This document shows positions 1-45,608 of a DNA stretch of 64,000 nucleotides, piece after piece. Position 1 is the first letter of the stretch. The number at the start of each line of letters is the position of its first letter. Made by a program: the position numbers and the translations under genes. The stretch covers positions 62,001 to 126,000 of the forward strand of contig MEDY01000036.1 in NCBI GenBank assembly GCA_001724265.1, in the 5' to 3' direction. Under the pieces are notes generated by a model. The model was not told the DNA's origin, did no database searches, and saw nothing but the letters and a program-made list of their open reading frames with translations. Source of the DNA: Rhizaria sp. SCN 62-66 (Eukaryota).

Positions 1-2964
1 CTCGGACTCGAGCGCGCTCTCATTGCCATAGCCAACATCACAACCCTCAGTGCGATTGTAAATGCCATTCCGACTGCTGGCATCCTGCGCTTGCACACCT
101 GCACTCGCACCACCCGCGTCAACAGCAGAAGCGATGGTACCATTGTTGATGTTAGCATTGTTGCCGTTGGTGGTGTTACCTGTGATAGGCGCATCGAACC
201 TGCGAATCAGCGACGGGTTTGCGCTGGCATACTCGACCGCGCTCTCGGGCTGCTCAGGCGCAAACACGCCAAATGGCACAAACTCAGTGGTATTTCCTGT
301 CTTCCCGCTTGCGTTTGCATTTGCACCGACCGCGCTTGTCGGGGGCGCTGGGAAGCGAGGTAAAGCGGCAATGGCAGCGCGCGCAGCAGCGGCGGACGCA
401 GCGGAGGCTGCCTCGGCGCGCGCTGCCTTACTTAGTTTCCGGCCAGTTCCAGTTCCACTCGCAGTCGCAGTCAAGGCGGTGTCCGTTGCAGTGGCATTTA
501 AGGGATCGGCCACGGCAGGATTTTCACTATTGTTGTTGTTGCTTTTGTTGTTGGTCGTGTTGAGATCTTGTTTGCTTGATTCGCCCTTGGATCTCTTTGC
601 AGTGCTTGTGTTGTCGCCTGCACTTGCATTGTTGTTGTCAGCATGAGCGCCGCTATCATCCGTGGTCGCGCTAACCGGCTTGTTAGCGAGCGTAAGCTTC
701 TTCTTCCATTTGTTAATAAAGTCGATGTTATTATTGATCTTGACTAAGTATGCGTTCATGTAGGGAGGCCAGGACACCCTGCCATGCGTCAGTGTAAGCG
801 CCCACAGCCACTCGGCGCGCACAACATACACGGAGGAGCTCGTATTAGCTCCAGCAGCAGCTGCGGGGGCACGATCCGCGGTCGAGACTGCAGCTGGTGA
901 GGCTGGAGAGTTGATGTTCGCGTTGTTGTTAAAAGCTGCAGCCGCTTCAACGGCAGGTGCGGCGGCCGCAGTGACGTATAAAGGACCAGGCAACATCAAC
1001 GGGGCAGCGTCACTGCTGCTGTCATTCATGTTCCCGCTGTCTCCGTCAGCATCTGACATCGCTATAGCGCTCGCGCTCGCGCTCGCGCCGAGACTATTGG
1101 TAGCCGAGGCTGTTGGAGCAAAATTAGCGGAAGGCACGCCATGGTACGTTGAGTCGACGATCAGGTACTTACATTCTGGGGTAAGGACCTCGCTTACAGT
1201 GCCGCCAAGCTCGCGGATACGCTTGGACACAGCAGCGCGCATTCGGCGTTCGTGCGCTTCAGAGAACGTGTTCCTGTTTATGTCGCTATTGCTCAGAGGA
1301 GGAGGCGCAAGACCCGCGATGCAGACGGTTTGTCCTTGCAAGTAAACCGAGAACAAACCGACTTTCACACTGTCACACACACTCGCGAGCGTCGTGCAAT
1401 CACTGCTAGCGCTGGTGCGTAAACTCCGGCGCACTATAGGGACTCGAAGCCCGCAGTCGTGGCCGTACGCATCGTAGATCGCGCTCACAGTTGCAGAGCT
1501 GCTGACAACCGCGCTGGAGCCCACGATAGCCTTTGTGCTGGAATTCACGCCTGCGCTCGCGCCGTGAGCCATCGCCACAGCCGCCACGGCCAGGGACCCA
1601 TAACGCAGCGCAAAGGCGAGGAAGTCATGCGACACGACGGTCATTCCGTCGTTGTTAACGGCGAACTGGTACTTTTTCGACCCGGGCGCGACCGCGACGA
1701 CGTGCGTGCACACGTTGGGCATCAGCGCGTCCGTGACCGCGGCGCCGCACAGCGTGGCCAGGAGCTCGAGCTGGCCGGACCGCAGCAGGAGGGCGCCGCC
1801 GGTGACTGTGAACACGGCGGTGCCAAGGCAGCGCGCGCGCGCGAGGAGGAAGGCGTTTAGACACGCAAGGAAGAGAGTCGGCGAGCGCAAGACGGGGGCA
1901 GCGGCGGGGATTGTGAACGCGGGCGCAGTAGCAGAACTGCCACTCGCACTGAACATGGGCGATGCTTGGACAGTGCTGTTGGAGTGACTAGCGGCGGAGG
2001 ACCCGTCGTCAGTATTCGTGGAGTTTGCGACAATGACGGCATTGAGGCGCTGCGACGACGACCATAAAATCTCTAGCGTTGTCGTGCTTACATCCGCGTC
2101 TTCATTCACATTTGCAGAGTCAGTCTGTGCCGTGGGCGTGACGGATAGAAACGACAGCGGTCGCGGCTGCGGGAACGTAATCAACAGCTCAGACAGGTCA
2201 CTGCGGCCAAGGCCCGTCGTTGCGCCCGCAGCAGTGACGTCGGCGTACAGGGAGCGCGCGAGCTGCGCCTGAGGACACGCGTTGAGAGACTGGAAGTTCG
2301 CCACAACCCGCGGTTCCTGCAGTGGCGACTGCGGCTGCGGGTTCCATGCGGGGTACAGAGTCGATAAATCGGCATCGTTTAGTAGCGGGGCGACGTCGAC
2401 TGTGGGCGTCTCAAGCAAGGCAAGCTCGAGGAACGTGACGACGTCGACGAACTCAAGCACGGGCACTGCGAATAACAGCTCTGCAAGCATCGACGTGGGC
2501 TCTTTCGTCATCGAAAGCTTGTTGGCAGCTGCAGAACCTAGATAGGGGCTAGCAGTGGCATCATTTGCAACTGTCGCAGCGGCCGCATTCGGAGCGTCAG
2601 CTGTTGTGGCTTGCTGTTGCTACTGTTCCTTCTGCTGTTGGATCGCGCGCGCTGCAAGTCCAGCTCCGACGTCGATGTCGGTTTGCGCCAGCAGGGCTGA
2701 GAGGCGGTCTTTGATAACACCCGGAACGGACGGATCGTTACTTGAGATAAGGTAATAAAACTTGCCATCGAACGTATTATTCGCCGAGCGCTTCGTTAGG
2801 AGTCGCTGCAGAGCGTTGAAAAAGGTGTCTTGCGAGGTCGTGAGACCCATGTTGGAGGCGCTCGCGACAGCCCGGACAACAGAGACATAAGGGCTGCGCA
2901 CGTCTAAGTAGACAATGCCACTGAAGCGCTTCGCCGGCGCAGCGCGGGGCGCGGGGTCAGACAT
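1..2964 (-). CDS. Multi-BRCT-domain protein (TopBP1/Rad4-like or similar); 3' end runs off the window; in-frame TAG at 2620-2622
   Basis: ATG at 2964. After the TAG at 2620 (context QQQKEQ*QQQA) the same frame stays open to position 1. BRCT-like segments: 'FTVTGG...LATLCGAAVTDALMPNVCTHVVAVAPGSKKYQFA...VVSHDFL' (~1815-1615) and 'LQGQTVCIAGL...IRELGGTVSEVLTPECKYLIV...VVRAEWLW' (~1340-800). Confidence 0.75.
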
Positions 2965-3584
2965 GGCTGGGCGGGAGGCAGCGCTGAGGCTGGGCCAGGG
3001 AGTGTGACAAAATGGGTGCGCGGTGGAGTGGAAGTAAACTGCGGATATAGAAACAAGGCGGTAATATTAGCAAGTATAATTACAGTTCCTAGTAAAAGAA
3101 TTTATTTCAGTACTATTCATTGGACGTCTTTTCTGTTACACGGAAGTTTGACGTAGATCACGCACTTGGAAATCGGCCGTTAGTCAGAGCGCCAAGGAAG
3201 CCGCAGCTTCTGCCCGCCTCCCACCTAAAGCACATTTTGCACGGTTTCGGGTGTATATATTTATTTAACCTCTAAAAATCAAGTCGGTACATAAATATGG
3301 AGTGACATGAAATGTGTATTCACAAATTATGCGGAATTTAACAACAACCGCGCGTATCAAAGCTAAGTATTCAGTCGCCACTTCACTGAAGCAGCGACAT
3401 CAGGGAGCAGATCCTAAGAGCGTGCACATACAACGAAACGAGGCATCAGAACTCTCTCTATATCACAAGAGGTCACAAGCGATCCGTCTTCGGGACCACA
3501 TATTGCCACAACAACAAAAAATAAACAAGAAACATCTAATATACGAAGCGCCGTAGAGAGTGAGGACAGCAGCGAGTGGCTTGC

Positions 3585-6126: not shown

Positions 6127-6780
6127 ATGTAGCCTCAGGGCCCTCCGCCCTTCTCTGCCTCTATCGCTTCACCCTCATCCTCTCAGGCTTATGCAGCTGA
6201 TGAAGAGCCCGACACGACGGAAAGTGCGATGAATAGATTTGCGCCGGACGAGCACACTGCGTTCACCGCGCAGAATTGGGCCGAAATGGCCGCGGCACTG
6301 TGCGACGACAATACCCCGCCGCCGCCACCGTCCCCGCCGCGAACTCCGGCGCTACCCTCTGCATTCACAGAGCAGGCGTCCTTATCATCACCACAGTCTC
6401 TGGTGGACGCGATTGTTGATGCTGAAGAGTGTGAAATGATCCCTGCGTCGCGTATCTACCGCCCGCCGCGCTTCTCGCCGCCCTCATCGCCGTGGGCCTT
6501 CCGCCCGCCGCCCGGTCCGCCGCAGTCCGTGCCGTCGCTGGTGACGCTCGTCACCGAACGGCTCTCGCACCGCATGGACCTGGCGGGCCCGCGGCTGGCG
6601 GCGCTGCCCGAGGACGTGGCGGAGCAGCTGCTTGTGCACATCATCACGCGTGGCGGCCTCACACCCAGCAACGCGCGCTGGTTCTACGACTGCGGACACG
6701 CAAAGGTGGAGAAGTTCATGCGCGAGAACGTCAGTTTGTTCCGCGGGATCCCGCCGCCGGACCAGCCAGGGTGCCACTGA
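6127..6780 (+). CDS. Small protein of unknown function with a globular C-terminal domain; start at 6127 (ATG TAG CCT...) if TAG is sense, otherwise 6229
   Basis: GC-rich ORF 6229-6780 ending TGA, with a folded-looking segment 'VPSLVTLVTERL...LAALPEDVAEQLLVHII'. An in-frame upstream ATG at 6127 is followed by TAG and 32 sense codons. Confidence 0.65.
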
Positions 6781-10500: not shown

Positions 10501-11646
10501 CGCACTGTTGCTGTGCAGGGCAGCGGGATCGCACGACCTGAGAGGGAGAAACGCGCAAGAGAAGAAAATGCAGGATACCAAACGCATTAGTCATCAGTAG
10601 ATCATAAATTGATATGAATTTTGAACATTACTTTGTGGATTTATGCGTATCAGTTTAGGATAGGCAATTATAACAAAGTTGTACTGATGTGTGAAGCGTA
10701 AGGAAATTAGTGAAAAGCTCGTTGTTGAGGGAAGAGATTTAGGAACGTACCTGGTGAAAGTCTCGAGGAATTTGCACTTGGTGACAACGCAGAGCGCATG
10801 CAGCGCCTCCTTGGCGGCCGCGGCAAGCGGTTTGGAGCCCGTGCGCGCGGAAGTGGCGATGAGGATCTGCGCCGCAGCGTGCAGCTTGGGCATCTGCAGC
10901 AGCGCCGGCGCGAGTACCGGCTGCGAAAACACGTCGCGGAAGCAAAAGTACGTGTAGATCTGCAGCTCGGGCCGCTCAGAGACGGAGGCGCGGAGCAGCG
11001 GGCGGTAAAACTGCTTGAGCTGCTGCTGTAGCACGGCTGGGTGGTGGATCGCGAGGCGGCGCACGGTGATGATCATCCTTGCCTCCTCAAGCCAGTCCGT
11101 GATCGTCGGCAGCGCTGCGATGCGGAGGGCCTCGGCGAACGCCACAGCGGGGTCATCGAATGCAGCGGGGGGCGCGGGGTCGCGCAACTCGTCCGTCATC
11201 GCCTGTTTGGCGAGTGCGGCGGCCGTGTTGGGCGTCGCGGCGCCGTTGGCGCTGCCGTTGCCGCTGGGAGCGCTGTTATTGGTGCCGTTGGCGGTGGCGG
11301 TCGGCACGGAGAAGCGAGGCACGGCGGAAGAAAACGCAAGCGGGAGGTCGTCCAACGGCGTGTCGGAAACCGTGGCGGCGCGGTGGCGCGAGGCGAGAAC
11401 GCGGGACTTGGTCGCGGAGTGCGCTGCAGCGGAGAGCGGGGGCAGCGCGGCCGACGTCGGGGTGGCCGCCACAGGCGCGATGTTCTCGTGCGCCATACCG
11501 TCGCCGTTCTCGGCAACAAAAACGCTGGGGCCAGACGCCTGTGTAGAACAGCGCGCGGGCGGGGTGGCGGGAGCGAGCGCGGACGACTCGCCGTCACGTG
11601 AAGGCAACATGACACGCCTAGAGCCTGTGGTAGGGCACGAGGGCAT
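7531..11646 (-). CDS. TOG/CLASP-N (TOGARAM/crescerin-like) HEAT-repeat protein with a long disordered tail; exons 11646-10751, 10537-7531
   Basis: 'DWLEEARMIITVRRLAIHHPAVL...LLRASVSERPEL...CFRDVF' resembles TOG HEAT repeats. Intron GTACGT...CTCAG joins the two ORFs in frame; stop is TGA. Start codon uncertain. Confidence 0.65.
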
Positions 11647-27320: not shown

Positions 27321-30300
27321 ATGTTCTCGGCAAAGCCCGACGACTTAGCCACCGACGCCCCTGTACGTATCTTCAGGCGTTTGATCTCCGCCGTACTAGC
27401 GTTTTCGTGTTGCATTTTCTCTTATGTCGTGTATATCTCATGTATTGTACTCTGTTTTCCGTCTTGCACGCCCGGCTCCACCACAAATCGCTCACCGCGC
27501 ATTCGCCCGTACGCCACCCCTCACAGTACTGGCCGTCTTTTGCCGCGCAGCCCCAGGCGACGTCCGCCAAGGACCGCCGTCACGGCGCTACGTCCAGCGA
27601 CTCTTTTTGGAAGTCCTCCAACTGGTTCCGCCCCGACTCCGCCGCCGCCGCCGCCGCCACGCTCTCCGCGGTCGATCCCACCTTCGACGCCATCGCTGCT
27701 CACGCTGCCAACGGCGCTGGCGTCACTGCCGCGACCGCCCCCGTTGCCGCGGTTGTTGCGGCAAGCGGCGTTTTGCCCGCGGCGCTGCCCGGCTTCCCCT
27801 CCTTCCCGGCCGCCATCCCGCAGAGCTACTACTGCGCCAGCCGCGACGCGTCGCCAGGCTCCGGCCCGCGGACCTCGGCGCCGTCGGTCAACGGGCAGGC
27901 AGCGGTGGAGGTCGGCGGCGCGCTCTGCTACTCGCGGTTTACCGTGAGCCGGAACCGCTCTCTGCCGCTGACTCCGCTCGCCCCCAGCACCGACTCGGCC
28001 TCGCCCACGGCCGTCTCAGCGCACGCTTCTGCTTCTGCGACTGTTGAGGATGGCAATGGCAGCAAGGGCTAGACGACTGGGAGCGAGGGCGATAACAAGG
28101 TGCCTGAGGCCGACGTTGACGCTGAGGCTGAGACTGCCTCTAACTCAAGCTCTGGTGTTGTTCTGAACAACAACGCTGGCTCCACCTCCAGCACCAAGCC
28201 TGGCTCTGGCTATGCTCCCGGCCCCGGCTCTGGCCCCGGCTCTGGCCCCGGCTCTGGCTCTGGCTCGGACCCTAGAGCAAACCATAACAACAACAAGAAC
28301 AACAACCACTCCAGCAACGACTACCGTCGTCTCAACTCCCTCCCCCCCATCTCCGCCGCTGCTACAACAGCAACGGCGGCTGGAGCGCTAGCAGCTGTAG
28401 CGCCCGCGGCGGCGTACTGCCCGCGCACGGCGCCGCTGCTCGCCCACTCGCTGCGCGTCTCCGCCGCGCCCGCGCTGACCCAGGCCTTCGCGCGCCACCG
28501 GTCTGCCGCGCTCGCCCGCCTGGGGGCGCAGGCCCGCATGCTGCCCGCGTTGCGCCTGCTCACGCTCACCTCGCTGCCCCTTGCGCGTCCGCAGTCGCGA
28601 GACGCCCTCGCGCGCGCGCTGGTCCTGCCGCTGCGCTTCCCCTCGGCGTTCGCCGCGGTTGGCGCGCCGCCGCCGCGGGGAGCAGTCGTGGTCGCCGGCC
28701 CGCGCGGCGCCGGCAAGAGCCACGCCGTGCGCGCGCTCGCCAAGGAAACCAACGTCTACTACCAGGAGGTGTCGGCGCGCGAGCTCGTGCGCGACGCCAA
28801 GGCGGGGACTGTGAGCGCGGGACGCGCGAGTCACGAGTACTATGGCAACCCCGCGTGCGGCGTGGACCCGTTCCTGTCGCAGAGCGAGCATCCTCTGGCG
28901 CGTCTGTTCGACGTGGCGCGGGAAAACGCGCCCGCGATCGTGTTCATCGACGACGCCGACGTCCTGCTCACGGGCAGGGACGTCGAGGGCGGGCTTCAAG
29001 TCCTTGAAGAGGAGCAGCGGGAGGAAGAGATCGCCAGGAAAGGAGGCTATCTCTCTGACTCTGAGTCCAGCTGCTACTCCAGCAGTGACAGTGGCAGTGA
29101 CTCTGAGAGTGGTTCTGAGAGCGGCTCTGACGCGGACGCGGACGCTGAAGCCAACTCTGGGGCTGTTGTTGCTCTGGGCGCCAACACGAAGCGTCGTCGT
29201 CTTGCAAACTCTAACAACAATAGCAACAACAGCAACAGCAACAAGAGCAAGAGTGGCGGCCGTACGCGCCGCTGCCTTTGCGCCTGCGCTCACTGCGTGT
29301 CAGCGCGCCTCGCTGCCTCCGCCGCCGCCACTGCGGCAGCCAAGCTTTACGCCAACAGCAGCGGCGGCGGCTCTAACAACAACAGCAACCTGCTCTCGGG
29401 CTACCGCGCAACCCACGGCAGCAGCGGTGGCAGCGGCGTTCCCGGCGACGCCTCGGCTGCGGCGTCCGCGGGCGCGCCCGGCGGCGGCGATCGTGAGGCG
29501 GCCGAGCCCGCGGGCGTAACCGTGACGCGAGCCGTGCTCTGCGCCGAGCTCGACCGGCTCTGGGGCGTGGCTAAAGCGCGCAATGAGGCCTCGCTGGCCG
29601 AGGCCGTGGCGCAGGCCCTCAAAGTCGAGGACGCCAAGGGGCTCGCAGCGCTCAAGGCGGGGCTCGTGGTCAGTGGACACAAGGCTAGCGCGAACAAAGC
29701 GGAGGACGGCCATAGTGAGGCGGCGGGGGGAAACAGCGGCCGGCTGACGAACAAGCAGTGGGCCTCCGTCTTCGGCACCAGCGCTACTAGCTTGACTACC
29801 GACGCTAGCCCTGGCACTGGCAGCGCGGGTAAGAGTGCGATTGCCGCGACTGGCAAGGTCGAGGCCGGCCTGCCGCGGCTGCCGAGCGTGAGCGCAGTGC
29901 GTCACCAGCTGCGGGCCGCGGCGGGTGGGGCGTGGCGGCACACGACGCCCGGCTCAGTGCTTGGCAGTGATCACATCAACGACAATGGCAGTGTCGCTGC
30001 GACCGCTGCTAACCCTCGCGACAAAAGCTCAGCGACTGCGATGACGGACGCCGAAACTGTTCTCGATGCTGAGCTTGACACTGACGCGACTCGTCTAACG
30101 AGTCGCGGACCTGATGTAAGTACCTCGCGCGCGCCGCCGCACGCCGCGCTGGCACACAAGCGCTGGCTGCAGCAGCAGGCTGAGGCCGAGGCCAAACTGC
30201 TCTCTGCACGCACTGCCGCGTCTACTGCTGCTACGCCGACTGCAACAGCAAGTGGTGGCACTAGCGCTGCGACGGTGGCTACGGCTAGCACTGGCTCTGC

Positions 30301-33300
30301 TGCCATGAGTGACGTTACTCCTGCTCGTGTTGCTGCGACTGCGGCCGCGGTGGTGCCGATTGACGCGGACTCGCTGTGCTCGACCGGCCCCGCGCCCAAC
30401 ACCAGCATCACCAGCACCGGCCCGATCAAAGGGCTATGGACGACGACGACGGCGCCCGTGGTCTCCAGCGGTCGCCCCCGCCGCGCCACCGCCAAGGACA
30501 GCGTGTTCGCGTCCTTCATGGGCAACTCTAACGCAAGCATGAGCGCCGCTGACAGCAGTGTACCCACACCGACGAGTAGTGCCGAATCTAAGGGGGTACT
30601 TACACCTGCGCCCGCGACTGTCACGGTGAGTGTCCCCACGGCTCCGGACCACAACGCAGAGCTCCTCGCCTCTCTGCCCAGCGCCGCCGCGGTTAAGCCG
30701 CCTGTCAGCAGCACCAGTAGTCACGGGTACTCTGCGCTCGCGGCACGCATGGGTGGCGTAACGACTCTGCCCCGCGCCCCACACCCCTCGCTCGCCGCCC
30801 CCAACATCACGAACACCAACCCGACGACCGAGGCCGCCGCCGCCAAGGCCGCCGCCGCCGCCAAGGCTGCCACCGAGGCCGCCGCCGCCGCCAAGGCCGC
30901 CGCGGAGTCTGTGCCGATGCCGGCGTCGCTGCGGGAGCAGTTCGCGCGGTCGGCGGCGGCGCGCGGCAGCGGCCGGGCCAGCGGCGCGATGCCGACTGCG
31001 CACCCAGTCATCGTCGTGCTCGCGATTACCGCGCCCGTCAAGACGACGAAGCTCGCGTACGGCAACAACAGCAGCAGCACTGCTAACGCAAAGAAGTCGA
31101 ATGCTGTTGACGTCACGACTGCTGCTGACATGAGTCTCCCTGTGCTGCTGCCTGGCTGCTGCTGCCCCGGCCTCCGCCGCCGCCGCCCCTGTCCGTCCTC
31201 TGCCCACGGTCACTTGACCACCGCCCACGGTCACTCCTCCCTCGCGACCCCTGCCGTGACCACGGTCGCCCTGGCCCCGGCCGCGGCGCCGCTGCTGCCG
31301 TGCTTCGCGCCTCTCTCGCGCCGCATTGCCGCCACGGTGCCCTGGGCGCTGCCCTCGCGCCGCGCGCGCCGCGCGCTGCTGGCCGACGCCGCGCTGCCGC
31401 TGCTGCTCGCGCCCGGCGTGTTTGCCACGGCGGCCACCACCGACGGCGCGCTCGCCGCGGCTGCGGAGGCAGTCGTCGCCGCGCGCGGCCTCCCGGTCAC
31501 CGCAGCCTATGGCAACAACACGTATCCCAGCAAGGCTCTCTCGCACCCGCGCAAGCGCGCGCCGACTGCGGCTGGCGCTGGCGCTGTGGCGGTGCAGTGT
31601 CCGCTGCTGCGGTACCTGGCGCGCGCGACGGCGGGCTTCTCGCCCCGTGACCTCTCTGCGCTCGTCGAAGCAGCGGCGCAGCTGGCCGTGGCAGAGGCTG
31701 TGGACGCGCATGTTGACGCCATTATTGCGAGGTACGGGCTCGCAAAATTTGCACCGTACATCAGTGTTTGATAACTTTTCTTTTTTCCCAATCTCAAATC
31801 GCTTAGATGACCTTCCATAATAACAATTCTAACAAACTTCTCTCTGCACTCCTTGTTTGTTTGTTTTTTCTTCGTCTCAACAGGGACAAGACGATGCGCC
31901 GCGAGCGCCGCCGCGCCGAGCGCGCGCAGCTCCGCGCCGCCACTGCAGCTGCCACCGCTGCCGCTACCGCTGCTGCTGCTGCTGGGACGATGCGGAACGA
32001 GGCAGAGCTGGCTGGGCGCAGGGCCTTGGCGGCCACCGCCGCCTCCGCCTCGGCCGCCGCTGTCGCCGCTAAGGCCCGGTCTAAGGCGGAGGCCAAGGCC
32101 AAAGCGAAGGCCAAGACCACGGCTACCGGCGCTTACTACAGCGACAGTGGTGATGATGATGAGGATGATGACGAGAGCAAACAAAAGGACAGCTCATCCT
32201 TGACTGTGCCAACTGCTAATAGCGATGCTAGCGCACTGAGCGTGAGCCGTGGCGGCTTAACTTTCGCACGCTCGCTCCGCCACGCGCTGGCCTCCTCGAG
32301 CGTCGGTACGCGCTCCCACGCCTCAGCCGCCGTCGCCGCCGCCACCGGCCTGTCCTCTGCAGCAGCGACACCAGGCACCACGAAGAGTAAGAGCACGAGC
32401 AGCACTCGCATGACTGACACAGACGCCGCCGTTGACGCTGCCGGTGCAGGCGCTATCCCGGGTGAGAACGACGATGCTGCTGGCAGCGGCAGTGACAGCG
32501 GCTCCGAGAGCGATGCCGACGCCCGCCGCCACGCCGCCATCGACGCCCTGCTCGACCGCGCTGACCCAGTTGCGGAACGCGACGCGCGCCGCGCCGCCGC
32601 CGCGGTCGTCACGGGGCCTGCACGCGCGGGGCAGGCGCACCTCTCCAAGGCCGCCGGTGGCTCGCGCTTCCCTGGCCTCTACAGCAGTGCGAAGACCGAC
32701 ACCGGCGCCGGCGCTGGCGCTGGTGCGGGCGCCGTGGCGGCTGCGAGCGACGCGCTTGTGCGCTTGCGCTTCCCCGGCTTGCTGCCGCCCGCGCCGCCCG
32801 CGGTGCCCCCGGGCCACTCGGCGCTGGCGCTGCCCACCGCGCTGTCCCCGCAGGTGCGCGACAGCACCGCCGTCACCGCACGCCACTTTCTGCTCGCGCT
32901 CGTCGATGCGCCGCGCACCTGTGACGCAGTGCGCAAGGCGGCCGCGGACGCGCTTGCGGACGCCGCGTATCTTGCTGCGGCGCCGCTGAGCCAGGCGAGT
33001 CGCACTGAGTACACGGTTGCGTATGAGCACGCGCTTGCGGGACTTGGAAGCGCGCGCGCCAGTGTTGGAAAGAGCAAGGGCTCTAGCTTCCCCGCGGTCG
33101 GCGCTGGCATCGTGCGCATGATCTGCCCGCCCAGGCCTCCCCTCGTCTCTAGTGCTCCAGTGGCTGCGACGGCGACTGTTGTTGTGAGTGGAGCGGTGGC
33201 GGGCCCGGAAGCGGGCGCGGCGGCTGCGGAGACAGAGGCTGCGCTGCAGTGGCAGCTGCTGTCGGAAACACAACAAGACACTGCCAATGCTACCGCTAAC

Positions 33301-35472
33301 ACTCCCGTTGACGATAGCGTTGGCGTTTTGAGCGCTGTTGCCGGCAAACGCGACGGCAGCAGCACTGGCAAGCCCGCGAGTGATGAGCAGCCGTCCCGCT
33401 TTTCCCAGTCTCTGGCGCAAAGCACTCGCAGCCTCGCGGCCGCGGGCAGCGGTGCCGTGGCGCCGCGCGTGCCGTCTGTGCGGTGGGCCGACATCGGCGG
33501 CAACACGAGCCTCAAGCGCGTAATCCGCGCTGTTGTCGAGGCGCCGCTGCTCTACCCCACGCTCTACCGCCAGTACGGCGTCGCGCCTTCCTCGGGTGTG
33601 CTGCTGTACGGTCCCTCGGGCTGCGGCAAGACACTCGTCGCCAAGGCCATTGCCAGCGAGGTCAATGCGACGTTCATGTCCGTCTCGGCCGCCGAGCTGC
33701 TGTCGCCGTACGTAGGCGAGGCCGAGGGCAGGATCCGCGAGCTCTTTGCGCGCGCCCGTGCGGCGTCGCCGTGCGTGCTCTTCTTCGACGAGCTCGACGC
33801 GCTCTTTACCAAGCGCAGCACGGGCGGCGACGCGGCGACCGCGGCCGACAGGCTAGTGGGGCAAATCCTCACCGAGATCGACAACCCGCTGTACTTGTCC
33901 TCAAACTCTAACACTAACGCAAGCCACTCTGCTGCGAAGTCTTCTAAGAGCCAGAGTCAGGGCCACAGCGGTCCGACTGTATTCCTGGTGGGCGCGACGA
34001 ACCGGCCCGAGGCCATCGACCCCGCGCTGCTGCGGCCGGGACGGCTCGATCACAAGCTCTACGTGGGGCTCCCCGGCGCCGCCGCGCGACTTGACATCCT
34101 CGTCAAGGCGCTCGGACTCAAGCGGCCCGTCGCCGGCGACGGCAACAGCAACAGCAACCGCTCGTCTGGCGCGACAGAGGATGAGGACGAGGACGAGGTT
34201 TCTCACCTCGCTCAGGACGTCACGCGTACGTAGCAAATGCCGATCAATGAACTCAAAATGCCATATCTTTGCTGTTTTCCAACTCTATTTTTAGGTATTC
34301 TCTTGTTATTGTCTCAATTTTTGTATTCTCTTTATTTTTATCTTCTGACTGACGACAGACGAGTCGCTGGCGCCCCTGGCTCTGCGCAGCGCGGGTCTGA
34401 GTGGCGCCGACCTCGCCTCTCTCGCCAGCCGCGCGAAGCAGGCCGCGATCCGCCGCGTGCTCGCGCTCCATCGGCGCGTACCTGCCGCGTGTCTGCGCAC
34501 GGGCGCCGCGAGCGACCGGGAGTGGGCGCGGGCCGGCTGCGTTTCGCTGCGGGATGTGACGGCGGCGATGAAGGACGCGCGGGCGAGTGTGAGTGTCGAG
34601 TCGGTGATCGCGTTCATGCGGTACAAGCACATCGAGCACCGCTCCGCGACGGGTGCCGCCGATGATGACGATGGCAAGGCCAGTGACGCTAGTGATGAGC
34701 AGCAGCAGCAGCAGCAGCAGATGAGTGACCGTGAGTCCGCTGTGAGCGACACCAGCAGCGCTAGCGCTGCCATTGACGACGCCAACAACGGCTACGACGA
34801 CGAGGAAGCCGTGGAGATCGCCTACGCGACTGCGCTGTGCGGCGGGGGCGAGATTGAGGACGAGGCGGAGGTCATGGTGCTGGAGAGCGCGGGCGTGGAC
34901 ACTGCGCCGCTGAAGCACCCCATGGCCAAGGACATCATCGCAAGGTACGCACATCTTAAGTCGAACTTAGACATGACATATTCACATTAAAGGTCACTTA
35001 TGGTCTTGATCGTGCGTTTATTCTATCTTGCTTACAGGTTTATTTTTAATTTGTTTTTTACATCGTTCTTTATAGGATGAGCAAGCAAGGCAACGACTTC
35101 CTTCGCGCCGCTCTCTCGACGAACACCAACACACAGAGCACCAGCGACGGCGCTGCGGACGGCGTTGATGCTGCTATTGCGAAAGCCAGCGCCAGTGCCG
35201 ACGCTGTTGGCGTCGATCTGGACGCGCTGCGTGCGCAGGCGCGCGCCGCCGTGGCGGGGGCGACGCAGGGGCGCGTCATGGCCAGTGTGGAACCCGGGGA
35301 GCGTGACGCGATCGTGCGCGACATCTTCGCCCGCTTTCACCGCCCTCCGACCGACAGCGGCGACAACTCTGGTGGCAACACGGGCGACGTGAGTGCGAGT
35401 GCAGGCGCTGATACCAACGCTGATGATGAACCTAGCTCGGGGAAGCAAGCGCAAACGATGCGCTTTCGGTAA
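27321..35472 (+). CDS. CDC48/p97-family double-AAA ATPase, much expanded (~2520 aa); exons 27321-27362, 27527-31731, 31884-34225, 34359-34944, 35076-35472; in-frame TAG at 28070-28072
   Basis: D1: GPRGAGKS and IVFIDDAD. D2: 'VRWADIGG', GPSGCGKT, VLFFDELD, 'GATNRPEAIDPALLRPGRLD', lid 'GLSGADL'. All four GT-AG introns are phase-compatible. Confidence 0.82.
28198..28268 (+). repeat. Coding tandem repeat (GGCTCTGGCCCC)n encoding GSGP
   Basis: A 12-bp periodicity is directly visible. Confidence 0.8.
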
Positions 35473-35887
35473 AAAGTGTCAGTTTCCTTGTGTTGGGCTG
35501 ACAGTTTACAACTTTTCTTAAGAGTGAAAGATTACACGACAGCTCTTTGATTTCAATTAATTTTTCTTACATAGACAATATTGACTTGCTTATCAATAAA
35601 GCTAATTCTATATCTCGAGCTAAACGCATAAACGCATTAACACTCACTTTGTTTAAGTGACAGTGAGCAATCCGTAACTTGAAGTTGATCACAAGACCTG
35701 TCTAACATTCACGTCGAATGGGTGTCGTATCACATTGTCGACCTGAACTTTCATTCGTATTTATGAGTATAATCTATGTTACTAGACTTGAATAAGTTTG
35801 AAATTGCGTCGTGCTCATGTTACCTTCTTCGGACTTCGTACTTTTATAGAACAAGACATCGCAGCCGTTTTGTTGCCCTTTATCCTC

Positions 35888-36799
35888 ATGCGCTCTCTTG
35901 CAACAGTAGCAGGTTTTCTGTGCTTATTATTATGCATTATAAATATTGTGATAGTATGTTCATCTGGTGTTCTTGACTACTCGCCGCAAGGCGTTTGGGG
36001 CGCACTTCCTGCCTTCCCAGTTTTCACCACCTTCGCGCACGCAACTCTACAGCAACAGCAGCTGCAGCAGCAGCAGATTCAACAGCAGCAACTTCGCGCG
36101 CAGCGTCTTACTACTCTCAGCTCTCTTACGCCAGCATCTCCTGCTCCGTTCAATGGTGCCGCCAACGCTCTCAGTAGCAGCTCTGACGAAGCACTGCGAT
36201 TGCGGCAGTCAGAGCTGCGCTCACGGTCGTCCCGCTCTAACTCGGCTGAGTTCTCACGTGTTGGTCGCACGTCGCGCACGAATTCGCTTGCCAGTAACTT
36301 GCTTCAAGTTAACATGGAACATGAGGGGATGCACTCAACGCTACAAGTGCCGCCGCCACCGCTGCTGCCTCTGACTCCTGCTCCTGCCCCAGCTCCAGTG
36401 CCCGCGCTTGGCATACCCCCCCTGGCACCGTTACCGATTATTCCTTTGAGTGCTCCAAGTACTAAACTCCACCAACAGCATTAGCAACATCAAGTGCAGC
36501 CGCAACCGTTTGCGGTCCAGTCAAACACTGTCTCTTGGCAGACTGTGCCGCCGCAACACGCAATGAAAACGCAGTCACAAATTCAAACACCGTTACAAGT
36601 GCCTGATCGTACAGCCGCCGTTGCAGCGCAGCCTCAAACTCGGCACACTCTAGCAGTGCCTCCGCCGCCCGCGCCCGCTCCTGTACCGGCGCCTGCGCCA
36701 GTCCCTGCGGCAGCACCGCTGCCGTTCGTCCCTGCCCCTGCGCCTGCGCCTGCCCCTGCCCCTGCCCCTGCGCCTGCGCCTGGGCTTGCGCCTGGGCTT

Positions 36800-36832
<33 letters not shown>

Positions 36833-39800
36833 CCTGCTCCAATCCCGTCCCCAGTGGTTCCCCTTGCTTTCAGTGGCCGCACGCGCCATGTCACCACTGC
36901 AACAGCGACAGCTGCTACAAACGCTGGCACTAATGCGGCCAATTTTGCCAATGTGCCCGTAGCAACGGAGACGCGGCAGTTCACGCCGAGGACAGCCGTT
37001 CATATATCTCCAACAACTGCCTCCGGACTGACAGCAACAGAAGCTAGCCCTGCTCCGCCCAGTGACGTTAGCGCTGCGCCTCCTAGCACAGCTGAGTCTT
37101 GGGGTGACACATTCAGAACCGCTCTTAGCGCTCCCTTAGAGACCATCAGCAATCTGGGCGCCTCCGCGTCCGCTGCGGCAAGCTCACTCGCATCGCGTGT
37201 GCTGGCCTCAACCGCAAGCGTTACGTCGGTGGCGCAGACCACACTAACTATGCGCTCTGCAGCCGGTAGTTCTGACAGTGGTAGTCACGATGGCGTGATG
37301 TAGTATGACTTCACGGAAACCCTCGGTACTGCTCACGGAGCCCCTGTCACAGTCTCATGGTCGCTTATCTCTGACACAGCGGGTAAGAGTAGTGGTACAA
37401 ACAGTAGTACTGGCCATCAATCCGCGACGTCTGCAGTGCGAATGTCGATCAAGGCTCGCCCAGCGCCTCTTAGTTCCACTGGCAGCGCAGATGCAGATGC
37501 GATTGTGGGCAACTATCTGTCAGTCGCGTTTGCAGAGAAAGAAGGCACAATGATTGGCAGCGAGGCTGTTGTTGGCTGGCTTTCTGACGCAAAGACTGCC
37601 ACAAATGAAGGCAGTGGTCGTGTGCTAAATCAACACGTGAATGTATACCGTCTAACCTCAAAGTCGAGCCGAGCTGTTGCTAATGCAGTTGTGCCAGTGT
37701 CAGCGGGGTACTTACGTGATGCAAGCATTGAACCGGTGAGTGATGACACTGGAATGCTCGAGCTGCGTTTTACTCGTCCGCTGTCAGTTCCAACCATCGC
37801 GGGCTCAGCTCCGTTCCTTACACTCACAGTAGAGTCAGGCTCTGACAGCACTAACAGTGGCGAGGCATCCTTGCGAACCTCAGGTGCCCTTGCTGCAACG
37901 CTTCGCAGCAGCGGGACGCCAATCCTCTGGGCCGCTGGCCCCGCTTCCGCCGCCTCATCCCCGCCGGCCTCGGCCCCCAACAGCAGCCCATCGTACCACG
38001 GCGACGAGCGCGGCGCTGCTACACTGCATCTGCGCTCAGGCCAAGCCACAGCGGCGCGCAAGCACGACGAGTGGGTTCCGTACTATATTGTTGCTGTGTG
38101 GTGCGCGTTGCTTCTTATCTTGGGCACATTAATGGCGTGGTGCGGCTATAAGTCAGAGACTCTGCGCAGTGCAAGCGAGCAGGGGATCTTTGCCCCAATT
38201 CTGCTCTGGGGGAACAGGATAATCCGCAGTCACACAAAGATTAATCCTCCAGCTGCACAGACAGCAACGCTGAATGGCAGCAGCAATGGCAAAAACAATG
38301 TGGTGAGCCAACGCGTAAAGCCTCGTACTGCGGCAAATGATGACCGCAAGCATGACGGCAATAGAACTCTTTCGGGTCGGGGCGACAACGATGAAGATGA
38401 AGAAGAAAGCGACTACACGCAAATGCAGCAGTACAACGGTGCTGGTGTTGGCAATCGATGGGTTGAGCTACTGCCAGTTGCTTTGAACAACCATGGTGCT
38501 GATGCTAATGCAAACGCGGGCGGTAATAACACCGCGCTGACGCAGCAACAGCAGCAGCAACAAAGTAAAGCGACAACTAAACGCAATGTGAGTAGTCACG
38601 AGTACACCAGCACTTTAGCGCGTGCCCTAGCAACTGTGCGCGCGCTTACGCCAGGGTACATATCACATGCCACGCTGCCGCACATGCTGTTCTTCGTCCT
38701 TGTGGCAACCATGCTCATTGTCTTTGCAATTACGCGCTTTGACTCGAAGCCCACCGGCTCTCAGGCCTGGCGCGGCGCCCTCGGCGACACAACAATGCTC
38801 TGTCTCGCCCTGACTTTGCTTGCGCCTAACCGCCACTCAGCGCCCGCATTCATGCTTCAAGTGCCCTGGGAGTCTGCTGTTATCTGGCACAGGCTTGCTG
38901 GTCGCGTTGCGCTTATATTTTCCATAGCGCATTTCGCCCTAGGTCCTACCGCAGCAGTTGAGCATCCAACTGGACTTGCCGCATTCATCCTGCTCATGCT
39001 CATTGCCGTTCTCTCTGTTGGCCCGCTGCGCCGCATGTCGTACAACGCGTTCTACGTGTTACACATGCTGATGTCTCCCGCGCTGTTAATACTTGCGTGT
39101 TTCCACGCTCCAACCGTGCGGACTCTGGCTATCCTTGTCATCCCCGTTGCGGTAAAGCTCGCCGACTGGGCCTGCCGTGCCGGCGAACGCTGCAGCACTG
39201 CGCACCTGCTCTCATTGCGCGCCTATGACAAGTTCACCGAGGTCACCGTGCGCGCGCCTAAGGGTCTGCGCTGGGACCCTGGAGCACACTGCCATCTGTA
39301 CATACCGGCGCTGGACGCCGCCGTAGCCCACCCGTTTTCAGTTGTCAACGCAGTGTGGTGCGGCGAGGCAGCGGCGGGGGTTGCAGCAGCGTTGCGCGCG
39401 TTGGACTCCGCGGGATTGACTCATAGTAGCATGATTATAAACAGTGGCGCGGACGGTAAGACAGCTGTTGCAAAAAGCAGTAGCGTAAGCACGCTTGGCA
39501 TCAGCACCTTGGCAGCTAATGTAAGGGGCAAACGGGAGCTTATACTGCCGATTATTGGGTGCAGCAACGAGCGTAGCAAGAGCGATCAGAGGAAGTATTT
39601 TTACTATCCCAACGGGATTCCCGCGCAGGTTCGGCGCACAAATATTAACAACTACGCTGTCACAAACTCATCGCTGCCATATCCCGTTTTTTCCCACGTG
39701 AATGCGAGCGCTACTACCCAAACCTCAGCACGAGCGCTGCCGCCGCTGCCGCCCAACAGTGGCAAGAGTGCGGATGTTAGTACCTCCGGTGGTGCTGGTA

Positions 39801-42800
39801 CCTCTGCTGAGATGGCCACCGGACCCAGTGCCCGTGCTCCGCTGCCGCCTCCGTCAGTGCCGCCAGAACACTTTGGCGACAATGGCTACTTACATCCAGG
39901 TCAGCCAAGCTACACCAGATCTTACACTGAGCCAACGCACAGCCACAGCTACGATGACTACGACGACAGTAGTCACGGCCACACTAACGATGAAGACGGT
40001 GATCAGAGTGTCGTTGATAGCGAAGGGGTGGATAGTCACAGATACGTCCCGTGGTCGTCGTTGCTTGCGACACCTGCAACAACGGTATTTTCTCCTCACA
40101 ACAACCTACATGTGAACAATATTGAGATCAGCAACACTGCTAGTTACCCTAACGCAGGCGTTCATCTCACCGAGACTAACATTGCTGTGACTGGTAGCAA
40201 TAGTGGCGCTACTAACAGCAGCGCTAGCCCTGATCCGCCCGCGACTGCAAACGCAACCGCTGGCAATCGGCTTCCTGCTACCGTTAGCAACAACAACAAC
40301 GCTCATGTTGTTGCGGTTGCGAATCGTCCGACGAATGCAAACACGCAGCGCACCCCTCGCGCGCGCCGCCACTTCCCTCCTCCGACAAGTGTCACACACG
40401 CAAATGGCAACGGTATGTTGAGCAACACAAACGCTAATCTGGTTAACAATGGCAGCGGCAATATTGTCGACTTTAGCTCGTTTGCCTCAGCGACTGCCCC
40501 GACGCCGGCCCCGCTTACGGTCACGCCGTGGGACGCCGCGGCTGCAGCGCACAGACTACCGGTTCACGGTCACTTGATCAACGCCCATGGGCAACCTATT
40601 CTTCGTGGTCATTTTGACATTAACGAAGATGGAATCGATGGCGGCGGCGACGGCGGCACAGTTTCGCACAGCCTTGTATCGCAACATCAACAACAGCAGC
40701 AGCCTAACAATGGTGGCGTTGATCGTGGAGTGTTTGGCCCTGGAAACAACGCTGCTCGTGGCAGTATTCACATGGCCCACTTGCCGACGCCTATGGCGGA
40801 CTCGAGCAACAACGACATGGTAAACAACGCGATCCCCACAAACCCTGTTGGCATGCGTAGTGGTGCGCCCAATAATAGCAGTAGTGCTGCAGTTTACTCC
40901 AGCCAACCTGGCGTTACTTTGCACAGTGATGCCTGCTGCTACGCGCCTGCGCCTCCTGTGGCATCGGTGCCCGGCGCATGGGGCTATTTGACTGCAAAGC
41001 CGACTGTCACACCACCTGCAACATGCCCTCGCTGCAACCACAGCTACGACGACGAAGTTGACGCGAACGGTAACATTATCGTGAACTCCTGCAAGCATGG
41101 CGGTGAGAACTGTAGCATCGGTGTCGCTCAGCGTAACGGCAACGTTAAGTGCGTACGTTGCGGGTATAAGCTCACCACAACCGTCCAGCAGCAACGACAG
41201 CGGCAACAGCAAGCCCGTGCCAGCGCCTATTACCGCTCAGTCGCCGCCTCTCTCGGACTCCCGTGGCTAACCCCTGCCACCGCTGCCGCGTTCGGTCGCG
41301 AGGCCGAAGTGACTGATCCGGGTCTGGGGCCTGTGATGACGTTCTACGTCAAGAACATGGGCGATGACACGTGGACTGGCAAGCTGCATGCGCGGGCGAC
41401 TCAAATCACGCAGCAACAACGCGCTAAGGCTGAGCAGGACAAATACAACGCTGACGTGCGTTATTGGAGCCGCGGTGAAACAGGCGGGCCACCGCAAACG
41501 CAGCGCCAGGGCAACTATCAGGCTGATGAAGCTACAATGCTGAGGGACTGTGAGCAAGGCTTACTTAAGCTGCCAAAATCCCTGCCTCTGTACCCTGGCA
41601 TGCCTGTGTCACCCGTGCCACCGGCTCCACCTTTGGACGCAGTAGCAGCAGCAACAGCAGCACCGCCAGCAGCAAATGCTGCAGTAACTGCAGGGAGCAC
41701 GGTGGGTAAGAATGAGCAGCTTGGGGCCTTGACTGACTACGCTAAGCGATACAAAGACGGTAGCTCGAGTACTGCGACGAATTTTCCTGCAGCCACGGAT
41801 AGTGTTCAGGATAGTTTGATGCGAACTCGTGATGGCGACTGGGGTGATGCCAAGCACGACGAGTATAATAGCAAGAACTCTACCGCGACTCTTCCGACAA
41901 ATGCCCACTGTAGCACAAGCACCAACGCTCACAATAGTCACGCTGGCGGAAAGCACGCTCGAAACAAGAAACGAGGCAAGGGCAAGGGGAAGCACAGCCC
42001 CAGTATCCACAGCCCTAACAAGAGCGACAACAAGACTCACCAGCAGCAACGGCAGCCGCAAGAAGAGGAAGAAGAAGACGGTACTGTTACTGCCGGTCCT
42101 GCTGTTGCACTCACAAACGCGGCCCGCAGCAGTCTCACTGTTGTTTCTCCGCCGAGCACGAACAACAATAACGCGAGTAGAAATAACGCCGGTGTCGGCG
42201 ACACGCTAATCGACATTGCGCTCTCACCGCCTCATTCAACAACTACATCAACCCTATCGTCCAAGGCAGCTCTCCCCAGCACCACCAGCAGCACAAAGGA
42301 CGTGACTAGCAAAGCTCAAACCCAAGCCGCCTCAAACAAGATCAAGAGTGGCGATCTAACAAAGATGGGCAGCTTACCTTTAATTCGCGTGCAGCGTCCG
42401 CTGTCGGGCGCACCTTACCTTTCCGTCTCGCTAGCGCACACCCGCAACCTGCTGCTCTGCTGCGGCGGCACCGGCATCACGCCCGCGCTCGCCTACGTCC
42501 ACCGCCTCTGGCAACTCAGCATCATCGCCCGCGCGCGCGCAGTGACGCTCGCGGTGCGGGCGCGTGGCGTCAAGGTGCCCGCGGCGGCGGAGGACGCGGC
42601 CGGGCTGTCGTCGCTGACGCCACCCGCGCAGGCGCACCCCGACGTATTTTGCTGCAGTCCGGACGCCGCGCAGGAGCTGCGCGACAGGCGCTGCGAGCAC
42701 GGCCAGTCTAGCAGCATTATAAGCAGCAGTAGTGGCGCAGCCAGTGCGGCTTACACTCGGGCCACGGGTGGCGCTCATGGTTACTCTACGACTCACAGTC

Positions 42801-44458
42801 ATCCGCCTGTCAACGACAGTGTGTGGGGCGACTGGGAGGAGAAGGGGCAGCGGCGTGTGCTGCTTGTGTGGTGCGTAAACGACCTGGAGCTCCTGTCAGT
42901 TGTGCTACCAAGGCTGCAAGCGTTTGCGGCGCCCGCGGTGGCTGAGATCGAGCTAAGTACTCCCTTAGCTGCGCCGAGTGCAAACAAGGGACGCGTTGAC
43001 TTAAGTAGCAGCAACACAAGCAACAAGAACATCCAGACTACTGCTACAACGGCCACAGCAAGCAGCGCGGAAAACCCTAGCATTGAAACTGGTGCTGCGG
43101 TTTCTGCTCCTGGCCGCAGTGATGTCAACGTTCCTAGTGCTGCACCTGCCAGCAGCATCGCTTCCAGCGCTGCCAGCAGTCTCAACAGGGCTCAAGCGTG
43201 GTACAGTGTTGGCTTCATCCATATCGCAGTGTTTTACACTGGCACCGAACTCTATCCCGACAATATGGCAGCAACTGACAACACTACCGAGTACAAGTAT
43301 GCGAATCAGTCAGCAAACATTCTCCCGCAGCCGACTGTGACAGTAGCGAAGAGCGGCAACTCTGGCTCACAGCCGCAGGGTCAAGCTGCTCAAGAGCAAG
43401 CGCGGTCGCGATCGGCGTCCCGCTCCAAGAGCGTTGTCATCACTGACATGTCCGGCGTCGCGGAGCAAACGTGGGACGAGAACGCTGCGCACGCGCCCGT
43501 GTTAGCAGACGCTGCGTTCAACGGCACTTTGCTCGATGCGATCACAAGCGTCACTCCGCCCAGCGCTGTCGCAGCAGCGGCAAAGCATGGTCATAGAGGC
43601 TCGAAGGAGTCCAACACGTACACATACGCCGGCGTTAACACGGGCAATATTAACGCCAATGCTAGCGTCGATACTGCTGCCAACCCAGGAGCTCCACCGC
43701 CAATTCCTCCTCGGCCTGCGCACAGTCACTCTACTGCTGTTCACGGTCACCCAGCCATTGCCCACAGTCAACCTACTGCCGCATACTCGCAACCGGCAGT
43801 GTCATTTGCAGCGACCGCAGCGGCGCCAACGTGCCTGTATGATATTGCTCCGCTTGCACTTGCAACCGTGCCAGCAGCGTTCCGTGGCGGCGTCGACATC
43901 ATCGTGGGGCGGCCTAACTTCAAGTCGCTGATGTCTGCGTTCCTCCACACCGACGAGGTGGCCAAGGCAAAAACCGAGGCCGCGCGCGGCGGCACCGTCG
44001 GCCTGCGTGGCAGCGGCGGCTCGGGCGCGGGGGTGCGCGCTGCGTACGCGCACAGGAAGCAAGAGCAGCGGCAGAAGCGCCAGCCCAGTGATTCCGATGA
44101 CGACAACGACGATGACGGCAAGGAAGAAGAGGACGAACAAGACGAGGAAGGTCGCGTCGGCACCGGCGTCAATATCAATGGTAGTAGTGTTCGCGGCCAT
44201 GTTGCTGGCGGCCACGGTCACGCGGCGGCGCATAACCTCGGCGCGTTCCAGAGCAAGGCCGCCGCACTTGCCTGGGACCACGTGCTCCGCACTGACCGCA
44301 ACCACCGCACTCTAAACAACAGCTGCAGCGGCGGCTGCGGGCTTGATGCGAGCGACACCGCGGTGTTTACGTGCGGACCTGAGGCGATGGTGACCGATGT
44401 GAGGGCCGTGGCGCTTGAGATGGACATCCCAGTCCACTCCGAGCAGTTTTACATTTGA
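35888..44458 (+). CDS. Signal peptide + Pro/Ala linker + DOMON domain + ferric reductase (TM heme, FAD- and NAD(P)H-binding) fusion, ~2856 aa if the TAGs at 36482 and 37301 are sense
   Basis: Signal-like '[26 protein letters not shown]'. DOMON: 'YLSVAF...[10 protein letters not shown]', 'LRFTRPL', 'ILWAAG', 'YHG'. FRD: 'WHRLAGR...AH', 'FYVLH...FH', 'HPFS', 'GGTGITP', 'CGPEAM', 'HSEQF'. ORFs 35798, 36494 and 37436 share one frame and are separated only by TAGs. Confidence 0.85.
36662..36842 (+). repeat. Coding (CCTGCG/CCTGCC)n repeat encoding a Pro-Ala stalk
   Basis: A 6-bp periodicity is directly visible, translating as PAPAPA. Confidence 0.85.
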
Positions 44459-44560
44459 GAACTTAAAGAACATTTGAATAAACATGAATACACTCCTTAT
44501 TTGGTTAGTGGTCCTGTAAACATAAAAAATCGACTTTATTTGGAATTTTCATGCGGTCGT

Positions 44561-45608
44561 TCAGTCCTTCTTGCGCGCCGCAAGCATGGCCTTGAGCTAG
44601 CCCTCAGCCCGCTGGCACTCGCTCTTCACCTCCGCGTGATGCCGCTGGGCCTCCGCGACCTCCTTCTGCGCGCGCGCCAGCTCGCCGCCGCCGTCCGCGG
44701 CCGCCAAGCGCGAGAGCTCTCGGGTTAAGCGTGCCTCCTCCTCCAGGTTCGCGCGACACACGGCCTCGAGCTGGGCAAGCTCTCCTCGCAGCCGCGTGGC
44801 CTCGGCCGCTGACGCCGACGCCGCGGTCGTTAGGGCCTCGCAGCGGGCGCGCGCGGCAGTGGCGGCGCGACGACGGCGCGCACCCTCGGCTTTGAGCGCA
44901 ATGAGCTCGGCGGTGGCGGCGCGCAGGTCCGCCTCGGTGGAGTTAGCGTTGTCGCAGAGGTCTAAGAAGGAGGTGTGGTTTTGAACCATGCTGATCATCT
45001 TATCCTGCAAGTCAAGTCTGTGAAAAACAAGTAAAGAAAGGTTTTTGCTTTTAATATTGTAGAATGTCGCGCGAACAAGTGAAAACATCGTGTCTTCAAG
45101 TCTTGATCGAACGTAAGAGAAGTTGGGATTTGACGTACTCTGCCTGCATCAGACTGGCCTTGGCGGCGCGCACATCGGACTCGAGAGATGCGATCTCATC
45201 ATCCAACTTACGCTCCTCACACAGCTCAAACGCGGTGCTGCTAGCAGCGTTGTGTTCCGCGTCGAACTCAAGCTGTTGGATCTCAAGTTCAAGTGACGCC
45301 TTAATGCTATACGACAGTGCCAAGTGTGACGAACAGGGACGAAAGTTAGAATACGATGTACCACACGCATTCGGCTATTCCAAGACAAAAACAGCAAATG
45401 ATAATATGACAACGTACTGATAAAGCTCCTTTAGGCGCGCGTTGTGCTCGATATCAGCCTCGTCGAGCTCTTGCCTGCGTTGCTCGAGTTGGTCGGCGTG
45501 TTGACGCGCTTCCTCGAGCTCTTTGCGCACGCGCACAGTGTCGCGCTCAAGCAAATCGACTTTTGCAAATAGCGACGAAACAGTGTCCGCGATGGACGAG
45601 GATGACAT
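44561..45608 (-). CDS. Coiled-coil protein of unknown function (~271 aa); exons 45608-45418, 45306-45139, 45017-44561; in-frame TAG at 44597-44599
   Basis: Heptad-rich sequence and two phase-compatible GTACGT...AG introns. After the TAG the frame continues as LKAMLAARKKD to a TGA at the GC/AT boundary. Confidence 0.72.

Follow-up and report, generated by a model that had tools for sequence, protein, structure and literature searches.

The window analysed here is a 64,000-nucleotide stretch of contig MEDY01000036.1 (positions 62,001 to 126,000), deposited under Rhizaria sp. SCN 62-66. It contains six TAG codons, each in the frame of the adjoining long open reading frames (ORFs), which bear on whether UAG is read as a sense codon in this organism. 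The GC content ranges from 45 to 69% in 2-kb windows. The gene content is eukaryotic, with Pfam domains of SAS-6, Ndc80, Pex2/12 with a RING finger, Nop2, a double AAA ATPase, a ferric-reductase/NOX-like protein, a Gln-dependent NAD synthetase, LSM, RRM and Ras-like proteins. Four of the TAGs are robust, at 2620 (minus strand), 28070, 36482 and 37301 (all plus strand), and two are weak, at 6130 (plus strand) and 44597 (minus strand).

The first robust TAG (2620..2622, minus strand) is at about codon 115 of a BRCT-domain gene (1..2964, minus strand) that begins at ATG 2964, runs off the start of the window and comprises about 2640 codons. The Pfam domains PTCB-BRCT and BRCT both lie downstream of the TAG, which is found in the sequence QQQKEQXQQQ, where X denotes TAG (CAA CAG CAG AAG GAA CAG TAG CAA CAG CAA). 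The database proteins P0126 (2479 aa) and P0128 (2486 aa) begin just past this codon. The second robust TAG (28070..28072, plus strand) lies in the N-terminal part of a double-AAA ATPase gene (27321..34990, plus strand), in the context GNGSKGXTTGSEG. This gene has three exons separated by introns at about 31732-31805 and 34226-34358, terminates at TAA 34988, and carries AAA and AAA_lid_3 domains across its three ORFs. Its start is uncertain, being either ATG 27440 or ATG 27321, the latter with 14 codons, a GTACGT donor at 27363 and a small intron; the ambiguity has no effect on TAG 28070.

The remaining two robust TAGs share a ferric-reductase/NOX-like gene (35888..44458, plus strand, terminating at TGA 44456). 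The N-terminus of its product is hydrophobic, and the product further contains a low-complexity stretch, a DOMON-like region, and the Pfam domains Ferric_reduct (transmembrane) and NAD_binding_6. The DOMON match is weak (E=0.23), and an AlphaFold model of the region made without an alignment was unusable (mean pLDDT 33). TAG 36482..36484 (plus strand) is codon 199, within HQQHXQHQ (CAC CAA CAG CAT TAG CAA CAT CAA), and TAG 37301..37303 (plus strand) is codon 472, within GVMXYDFTETL, directly ahead of the DOMON-like region. By inspection, the only hydrophobic signal-like N-terminus of the gene lies upstream of both. As for the weak sites, TAG 6130..6132 (plus strand) directly follows ATG 6127, immediately ahead of ORF 6133-6780, and the database protein P0138 begins at ATG 6229, past the TAG. 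TAG 44597..44599 (minus strand) belongs to a coiled-coil gene on the minus strand that begins at ATG 45607 and has three exons. It lies in the last of these, 11 codons ahead of TGA 44561, and may be either a sense codon or a real stop.

Six codon-frame models, trained on 15 exon segments distant from the parts under test, were applied to the sequence around the TAGs. For the segments upstream of 2620, 28070, 36482 and 37301, in-frame coding was the best of the six frame models, with margins over the next-best frame of 45, 47, 22 and 30 nats, respectively. A bridge scan then took all cases in which a single stop divides two ORFs of the same frame, each at least 100 codons long. Coding-like sequence flanked the stop on both sides at 4 of the 11 TAG bridges, 0 of the 2 TAA bridges and 0 of the 17 TGA bridges (Fisher estimate p ~0.01), the four being 2620, 28070, 36482 and 37301. 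Downstream of two of the TAGs, the sequence up to the first ATG is itself coding-like, over 155 codons at 28070 (margin 58 nats) and over 46 codons at 37301 (margin 15 nats), so an ATG start under the standard code cannot supply these parts. At 6130 the next ATG follows after 32 codons, and the margin over this stretch is just 8 nats. When stretches of 11 codons are compared, the one behind TAG 44597 is the most coding-like, ahead of those behind all 18 modelled stops (rank 1/19). Every apparent TAA or TGA break that was examined lies in an AT-rich intron or after a frame change; the exon set (16,369 codons, or 16,385 in the codon-context count), chosen to lack TAA and TGA, contains five TAGs and none of the other two stops in frame. 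In-frame TAG with coding sequence on both sides, as a reassignment of UAG only would produce, is found at the four robust sites and weakly at the other two.

The introns of this genome region are short and AT-rich (GC 0.26-0.39 in six measured introns) and lie inside GC-rich genes. Their 5' sites are GTACGT, GTACGG, GTACGC and GTACTT, the GTACG(T/G/C) donor being strong, and their 3' ends are YAG, often TAG, preceded by a pyrimidine tract. TAG forms the 3' end of five introns read in the window, which the initial annotation had overlooked. It can therefore serve as a splice acceptor, and the in-frame TAGs might never reach the ribosome, being spliced out with GC-rich introns, altered by U-to-C editing of the mRNA, or simply sequence errors. 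Contigs of the polyadenylated RNA run X9 map inside the ORFs that precede 28070 and 36482; of the eight listed, none spans a TAG. Among the listed splice joints, which are dominated by repeats, no real one is visible. The DNA flanking the TAGs, however, does not resemble the introns. The 60-nt windows on the coding side have a GC content of 0.42-0.82, compared with 0.26-0.39 in the six verified introns, and the flanks are coding-like in one frame, which an intron does not need. Between TAG and proposed start, none of the six sites has a 5' splice site of the GTACG type.

Other public data sets contain the same TAGs. The contig comparison covered 20 kb of the window, with 2620 and 6130 outside it and no listed contig over 28070. 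Contigs of run X4, from another study, keep the TAG at 36482, 37301 and 44597 with no difference there (31234-36723, 36993-38439 and 43668-44638), and contigs of run X2 keep it at 36482 and 37301 (35457-36723, with four other differences, and 37245-37896). In addition, public gene calls present the pieces as separate proteins (P0137, P0135, P0134, P0132 and P0121). P0137 (114 aa, 2623-2964) ends at TAG 2620 in 7 contigs, P0135 (27440-28069) ends at TAG 28070 in 5 contigs, as does its variant P0136 with 3 substitutions, and P0134 (35888-36481) ends at TAG 36482 in 7 contigs. Contigs of 187 kb and 122 kb in public assemblies carry these genes. The persistence of the TAGs in independent runs and in 5-7 contigs excludes assembly error at 2620, 28070, 36482, 37301 and 44597. 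The TAGs are real DNA, inside continuous coding frames and without an intron signature, and their removal before translation is the least probable of the explanations considered here. The claims that no AT-rich intron lies near the TAGs and that the genes contain no in-frame TAA or TGA were borne out. That six in-frame TAGs interrupt otherwise intact genes holds as far as their presence in frame is concerned, with four robust and those at 6130 and 44597 weak.

TAG is also missing from the ends of genes. The 18 modelled gene ends comprise 9 TAA, 9 TGA and no TAG; at a TAG share of 20%, the chance of finding none is 0.018. Out of frame TAG is not rare, with 47 and 141 occurrences in exon frames 2 and 3, compared with 62 and 179 for TAA. 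In this small sample only UAA and UGA terminate, neither is found in frame, and no modelled gene needs a TAG terminator. Two further TAGs were considered as gene ends and rejected. TAG 34231..34233 (plus strand) lies in the second intron of the AAA gene (5' splice site GTACGTAG), with AAA before it and AAA_lid_3 after it. TAG 52424..52426 (plus strand) closes an out-of-frame ORF in the 3' untranslated region (UTR) of the NAD synthetase gene, whose last exon terminates at TGA 52404; homology of the NAD synthetase ORF to human NADSYN1 (6ofb) stops at the intron, at query residue 272, and the last exon is in another frame. Being in an intron and a 3' UTR, respectively, neither TAG is a terminator. 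The count in the initial annotation of 8 TAA, 8 TGA and no TAG among 16 gene ends has thus been extended with its zero intact, although the zero depends on 44597 being read through.

The sequence that follows the in-frame TAGs likewise sets them apart from terminators. A purine follows the TAA or TGA at 15 of the 18 gene ends, whereas the +4 bases at 2620, 6130, 28070, 36482, 37301 and 44597 are C, C, A, C, T and C, respectively, a pyrimidine at 5 of 6 (Fisher p=0.007 vs real stops). This difference makes the in-frame TAGs unlike terminators. It also bears on a position-dependent code, in which UAG would be sense far from the 3' end of the mRNA and a stop near it, making 44597 a terminator. 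Such ambiguous stop/sense codes, of the Condylostoma, Parduczia and Blastocrithidia type, have a certain appeal here: the in-frame TAGs are far from 3' ends, and the sole 3'-proximal one, 44597, is just 11 codons from a TGA. Those 11 codons are, however, the coding-like stretch described above, and the C at +4 is unlike real stops. Further, the known codes of this type have two or all three stops in frame as sense codons, whereas TAG alone is in frame here and TAA and TGA never are. We give a position-dependent code a very small probability.

Which amino acid UAG would specify is suggested by its neighbours. At 2620 and 36482 the TAG is the lone non-CAN codon within a run of CAA, CAG, CAC and CAT codons. 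At least three Gln codons lie within four codons either side of two of the five exon-set TAGs, as they do for 23.8% of Gln codons and for ~1-5% of Leu, Glu, Lys, Tyr, Trp and Ser codons. Computed from these neighbour counts, the likelihood ratio of Gln over Leu is ~65. Gln thus appears to be the amino acid best fitted to the TAG context, as the initial annotation had proposed from the Gln-rich runs. Homologues of the BRCT N-terminus read through TAG 2620 were sought, and only the window's own protein was found at near lengths and none longer, the latter being weak evidence. When the surroundings of TAG 37301 were searched with phmmer, 1.84 billion representatives yielded only the organism's own protein and one low-complexity match. 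In the ESM Atlas, the 114-aa ORF upstream of TAG 2620 gave an uninformative best score of 0.75 with TM <0.5.

Taken together, the data make it very probable that UAG fails to terminate translation at four or more positions in this organism. We consider that UAG is probably decoded as an amino acid, itself probably Gln, and that UAA and UGA terminate. Such a code resembles NCBI translation table 15 (UAG=Gln, UAA and UGA stops), the Blepharisma nuclear code, which the initial annotation did not take into account. Decoding would most likely be by a tRNA with a CUA anticodon charged with Gln; a tRNA with this anticodon is the only means of reading UAG without UAA. The release factor eRF1 would recognise UAG poorly, and as a sense codon UAG would be used very sparingly. 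Ribosomes would then read through each TAG with insertion of Gln, and we infer that the same would apply genome-wide. A tRNA scan and an Rfam scan of the window returned no tRNA genes and no Rfam matches, and the 64 kb contain no eRF1 gene.

Several observations weigh against this interpretation. All four robust TAGs fall within the first 4-17% of genes of 2400-2900 codons (uniform chance ~7e-4, calculated post hoc), which is the pattern expected from tolerated N-terminal nonsense or from costly, inefficient readthrough. None of the TAGs is in a conserved domain and the homologue searches aligned no homologue over any TAG site, so Gln is drawn from context. That context describes equally well an origin by mutation of CAG to TAG, the commonest nonsense route. 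TAG makes up ~1% of Gln codons (5 TAG vs 559 CAG + CAA in the exon set) and is far sparser than UAG in the rhizarian exLh discussed below. Among 808 one-transition stop precursors, 526 lead to TAG (CAG 420, TGG 106; compare CAA 139, CGA 37), and four nonsense changes would all be TAG by chance with p ~0.18. As 65% of transition targets give TAG, the presence of TAG only is by itself not strong evidence, and the argument of the initial annotation from the lack of TAA and TGA decay proved weak. Were 44597 a real stop, one of 18 gene ends would be TAG (p ~0.1 at a 20% share). The +4 base is C, classically a leaky stop context, at four of the six sites. Finally, run X2 differs from the window at 16 single bases in the AAA and ferric-reductase genes (27440-44455), and 14 of these changes are nonsynonymous, indicating that these regions are weakly constrained.

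Much of this would be accounted for by a near-standard code with a leaky UAG. Premature stops arising from CAG and other codons in disordered N-termini would be partly read through by near-cognate tRNAs, with tRNA-Gln acting at the Gln-flanked sites, and UAG would be shunned at gene ends because it terminates poorly. In yeast, which uses the standard code, premature stops flanked as Q-X-Q in Gln-rich mRNAs are described as being read through as Gln (PMC13192750). This context is present at 2620 (QXQ) and partly at 36482 (HXQ, with four Gln within four codons), both in CAR runs, and is absent from 28070, 37301 and 44597. The leaky +4 base, the very low usage and the 5'-proximal position of the four solid sites, where abortive termination costs least, would also follow. 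At 28070 (GXT, +4 A) and 37301 (MXY, +4 T), however, there is no Gln context; the two TAGs of the ferric-reductase gene would compound the loss of product; and known near-cognate readthrough is partial, yet ORFs of 2400-2900 codons have been maintained. The 3' codons after the TAGs (CAA CAG, CAA CAT, ACG ACT, TAT GAC, CCT CAG and CTC AAG) do not match UAG-CARYYA, the programmed readthrough motif of the plant-virus literature, at any of the six sites, and the second 3' codon is never YYA. We regard the leaky code as unlikely, but it is the main rival and a live one. The claim of the initial annotation that UAG is sense and UAA and UGA are stops is upheld for the failure of UAG to terminate at four or more positions and for UAA and UGA as the only terminators seen, while full genome-wide reassignment, as opposed to leaky readthrough, is no more than probable.

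A further rival is the standard code with true stops. Here the upstream segments would be remnants or upstream ORFs, the proteins would be made from downstream ATGs, N-terminally truncated but functional, and 44597 would be a terminator. The position of the four robust TAGs near the 5' end, the splitting of the public calls at these codons, the accessibility of TAG as a nonsense codon and the predominance of nonsynonymous strain differences are all compatible with such truncation. By contrast, the upstream segments (114-301 codons) have remained open with in-frame codon usage and no TAA, TGA or frameshift, coding-like sequence fills the 155 and 46 codons between TAG and next ATG at 28070 and 37301, and the AT-rich spacer typical of real intergenic regions is lacking. 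True stops would further imply that 3 of ~19 genes in 64 kb are disrupted by TAGs that are fixed across 5-7 contigs and samples of several studies and whose context is unlike that of real stops. The probability of true stops is small.

If UAG is indeed decoded as Gln, its distribution may reflect an early or low-usage takeover in a previously unsampled, non-ciliate wastewater lineage, in which gene ends have been purged of UAG and sense use is tolerated only 5'-proximally, in disordered regions and weak-termination contexts. We put this forward as a tentative and rather doubtful proposal. If true, it would offer a view in nature of codon reassignment under way by the 'ambiguous intermediate' route. 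Sparse, 5'-biased and context-biased use would bear on how stop codons are captured, by an ambiguous intermediate or by prior loss of the codon. As public calls split genes at the TAGs (P0137, P0135, P0134 and P0132), standard-code annotation would be wrong wherever a TAG lies in frame.

DNA of the window is found in public bioreactor, wastewater and activated-sludge metagenomes; one run may be the source, and three others contain 85-86% of the sampled words. The affiliation of the host was examined through the Nop2 gene (46009-48522, minus strand) with a single-gene tree of 38 rows, in which the window clusters with seven database proteins (SH-aLRT 99). The closest of these, P0002, is 83% identical by BLASTP and 76% over tree columns. 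Oomycetes are the best named Nop2 matches, but the tree lends no support to a stramenopile affiliation: it does not join the window to them, and neither is the window placed with the single alveolate included. A metagenome scan with the Nop2 core found 48 loci, all at most 61% identical, and did not reach P0002. Prokaryotic genomes scanned for misbinned contigs gave four loci, all prokaryotic.

Intron regions were read at 4443-4600, 10540-10745, 14180-14274, 31732-31805, 34226-34358, 45020-45135, 45310-45415 and 52053-52196. Their signature (GTACG donor, YAG end, low GC) is a useful input to a gene finder for this organism. The SAS-6 gene has two exons (ORFs 12193-14184 and 14275-16227), and the exons of the Ndc80 gene are ORFs 4597-5733 and 3585-4442. 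The region 7531-11730 (minus strand) is a single gene whose intron carries two tandem stops; readthrough of TGA at these stops (10591-10596) was ruled out, as they lie inside the AT-rich intron. Very long proteins, of 1000 to ~2900 codons, are encoded at 1-2964, 7531-11646, 18895-22857, 27440-34990, 35888-44458 and 54070-58227. They consist of Ala-, Ser-, Asn-, Gly- and Pro-Ala-rich low-complexity padding between small recognisable domains, and most have no detectable homologues beyond the organism. Among them, the long, low-complexity AAA and ferric-reductase genes show little constraint, or diversifying selection. The stretch 58300-60600 is AT-rich (GC ~0.45) and strongly T-skewed, and no gene in it is convincing; one frame translates its long poly-T run into consecutive Phe.

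Few changes of UAG only, with UAA still a stop, are known, namely those of Iotanema, of one rhizarian and of certain ciliates, and each new case tests the uncoupling of the two codons. In the literature searched, supplementary files not being covered, nuclear changes of UAG are not reported for any eukaryote from wastewater or any stramenopile. Among the closest parallels is the fornicate Iotanema spirale, described as using UAG=Gln with UAA and UGA as stops, a meaning fixed by alignment at conserved positions and a likelihood test (Panek et al. 2017, PMC5304391). As in Iotanema, UAG alone is in frame in the window, UAA and UGA terminate and Gln is the inferred amino acid. Unlike Iotanema, the organism looks aerobic (Pex2/12, NOX-like gene) and is GC-rich, its TAG use is very low, and Gln is assigned by context. 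The ciliates Hartmannula sinica and Trochilia petrani are described as having UAG=Gln, with widespread sense UAG and UAA as the preferred stop (McGowan et al. 2024, PMC11687900). They share with the code proposed for the window, and with table 15, TAG as Q and the retention of the other stops; in contrast, TAA and TGA are equally frequent here (9 and 9), and in the Nop2 tree the window does not fall with the one alveolate sampled.

UAG has also been captured for Leu, both in the rhizarian exLh, for which 384 UAG in 71 genes, ~5 per gene, are given (PMC5304391), and in the TARA phyllopharyngean ciliates (PMC11687900). The window resembles these in a probable UAG-only reassignment with UAA and UGA still stops, but differs in a context that favours Gln over Leu. 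Sites 2620 and 36482 resemble the yeast Q-X-Q system, in which readthrough is partial and the nonsense sites are engineered; 28070 and 37301, by contrast, have no Gln context, and TAG is absent from all 18 gene ends. The type of code proposed here is therefore already known from Iotanema, Hartmannula, Trochilia and NCBI table 15, and what would be new, if confirmed, is its occurrence in an as yet unplaced lineage outside the ciliates, with unusually sparse, 5'-biased use of the codon.

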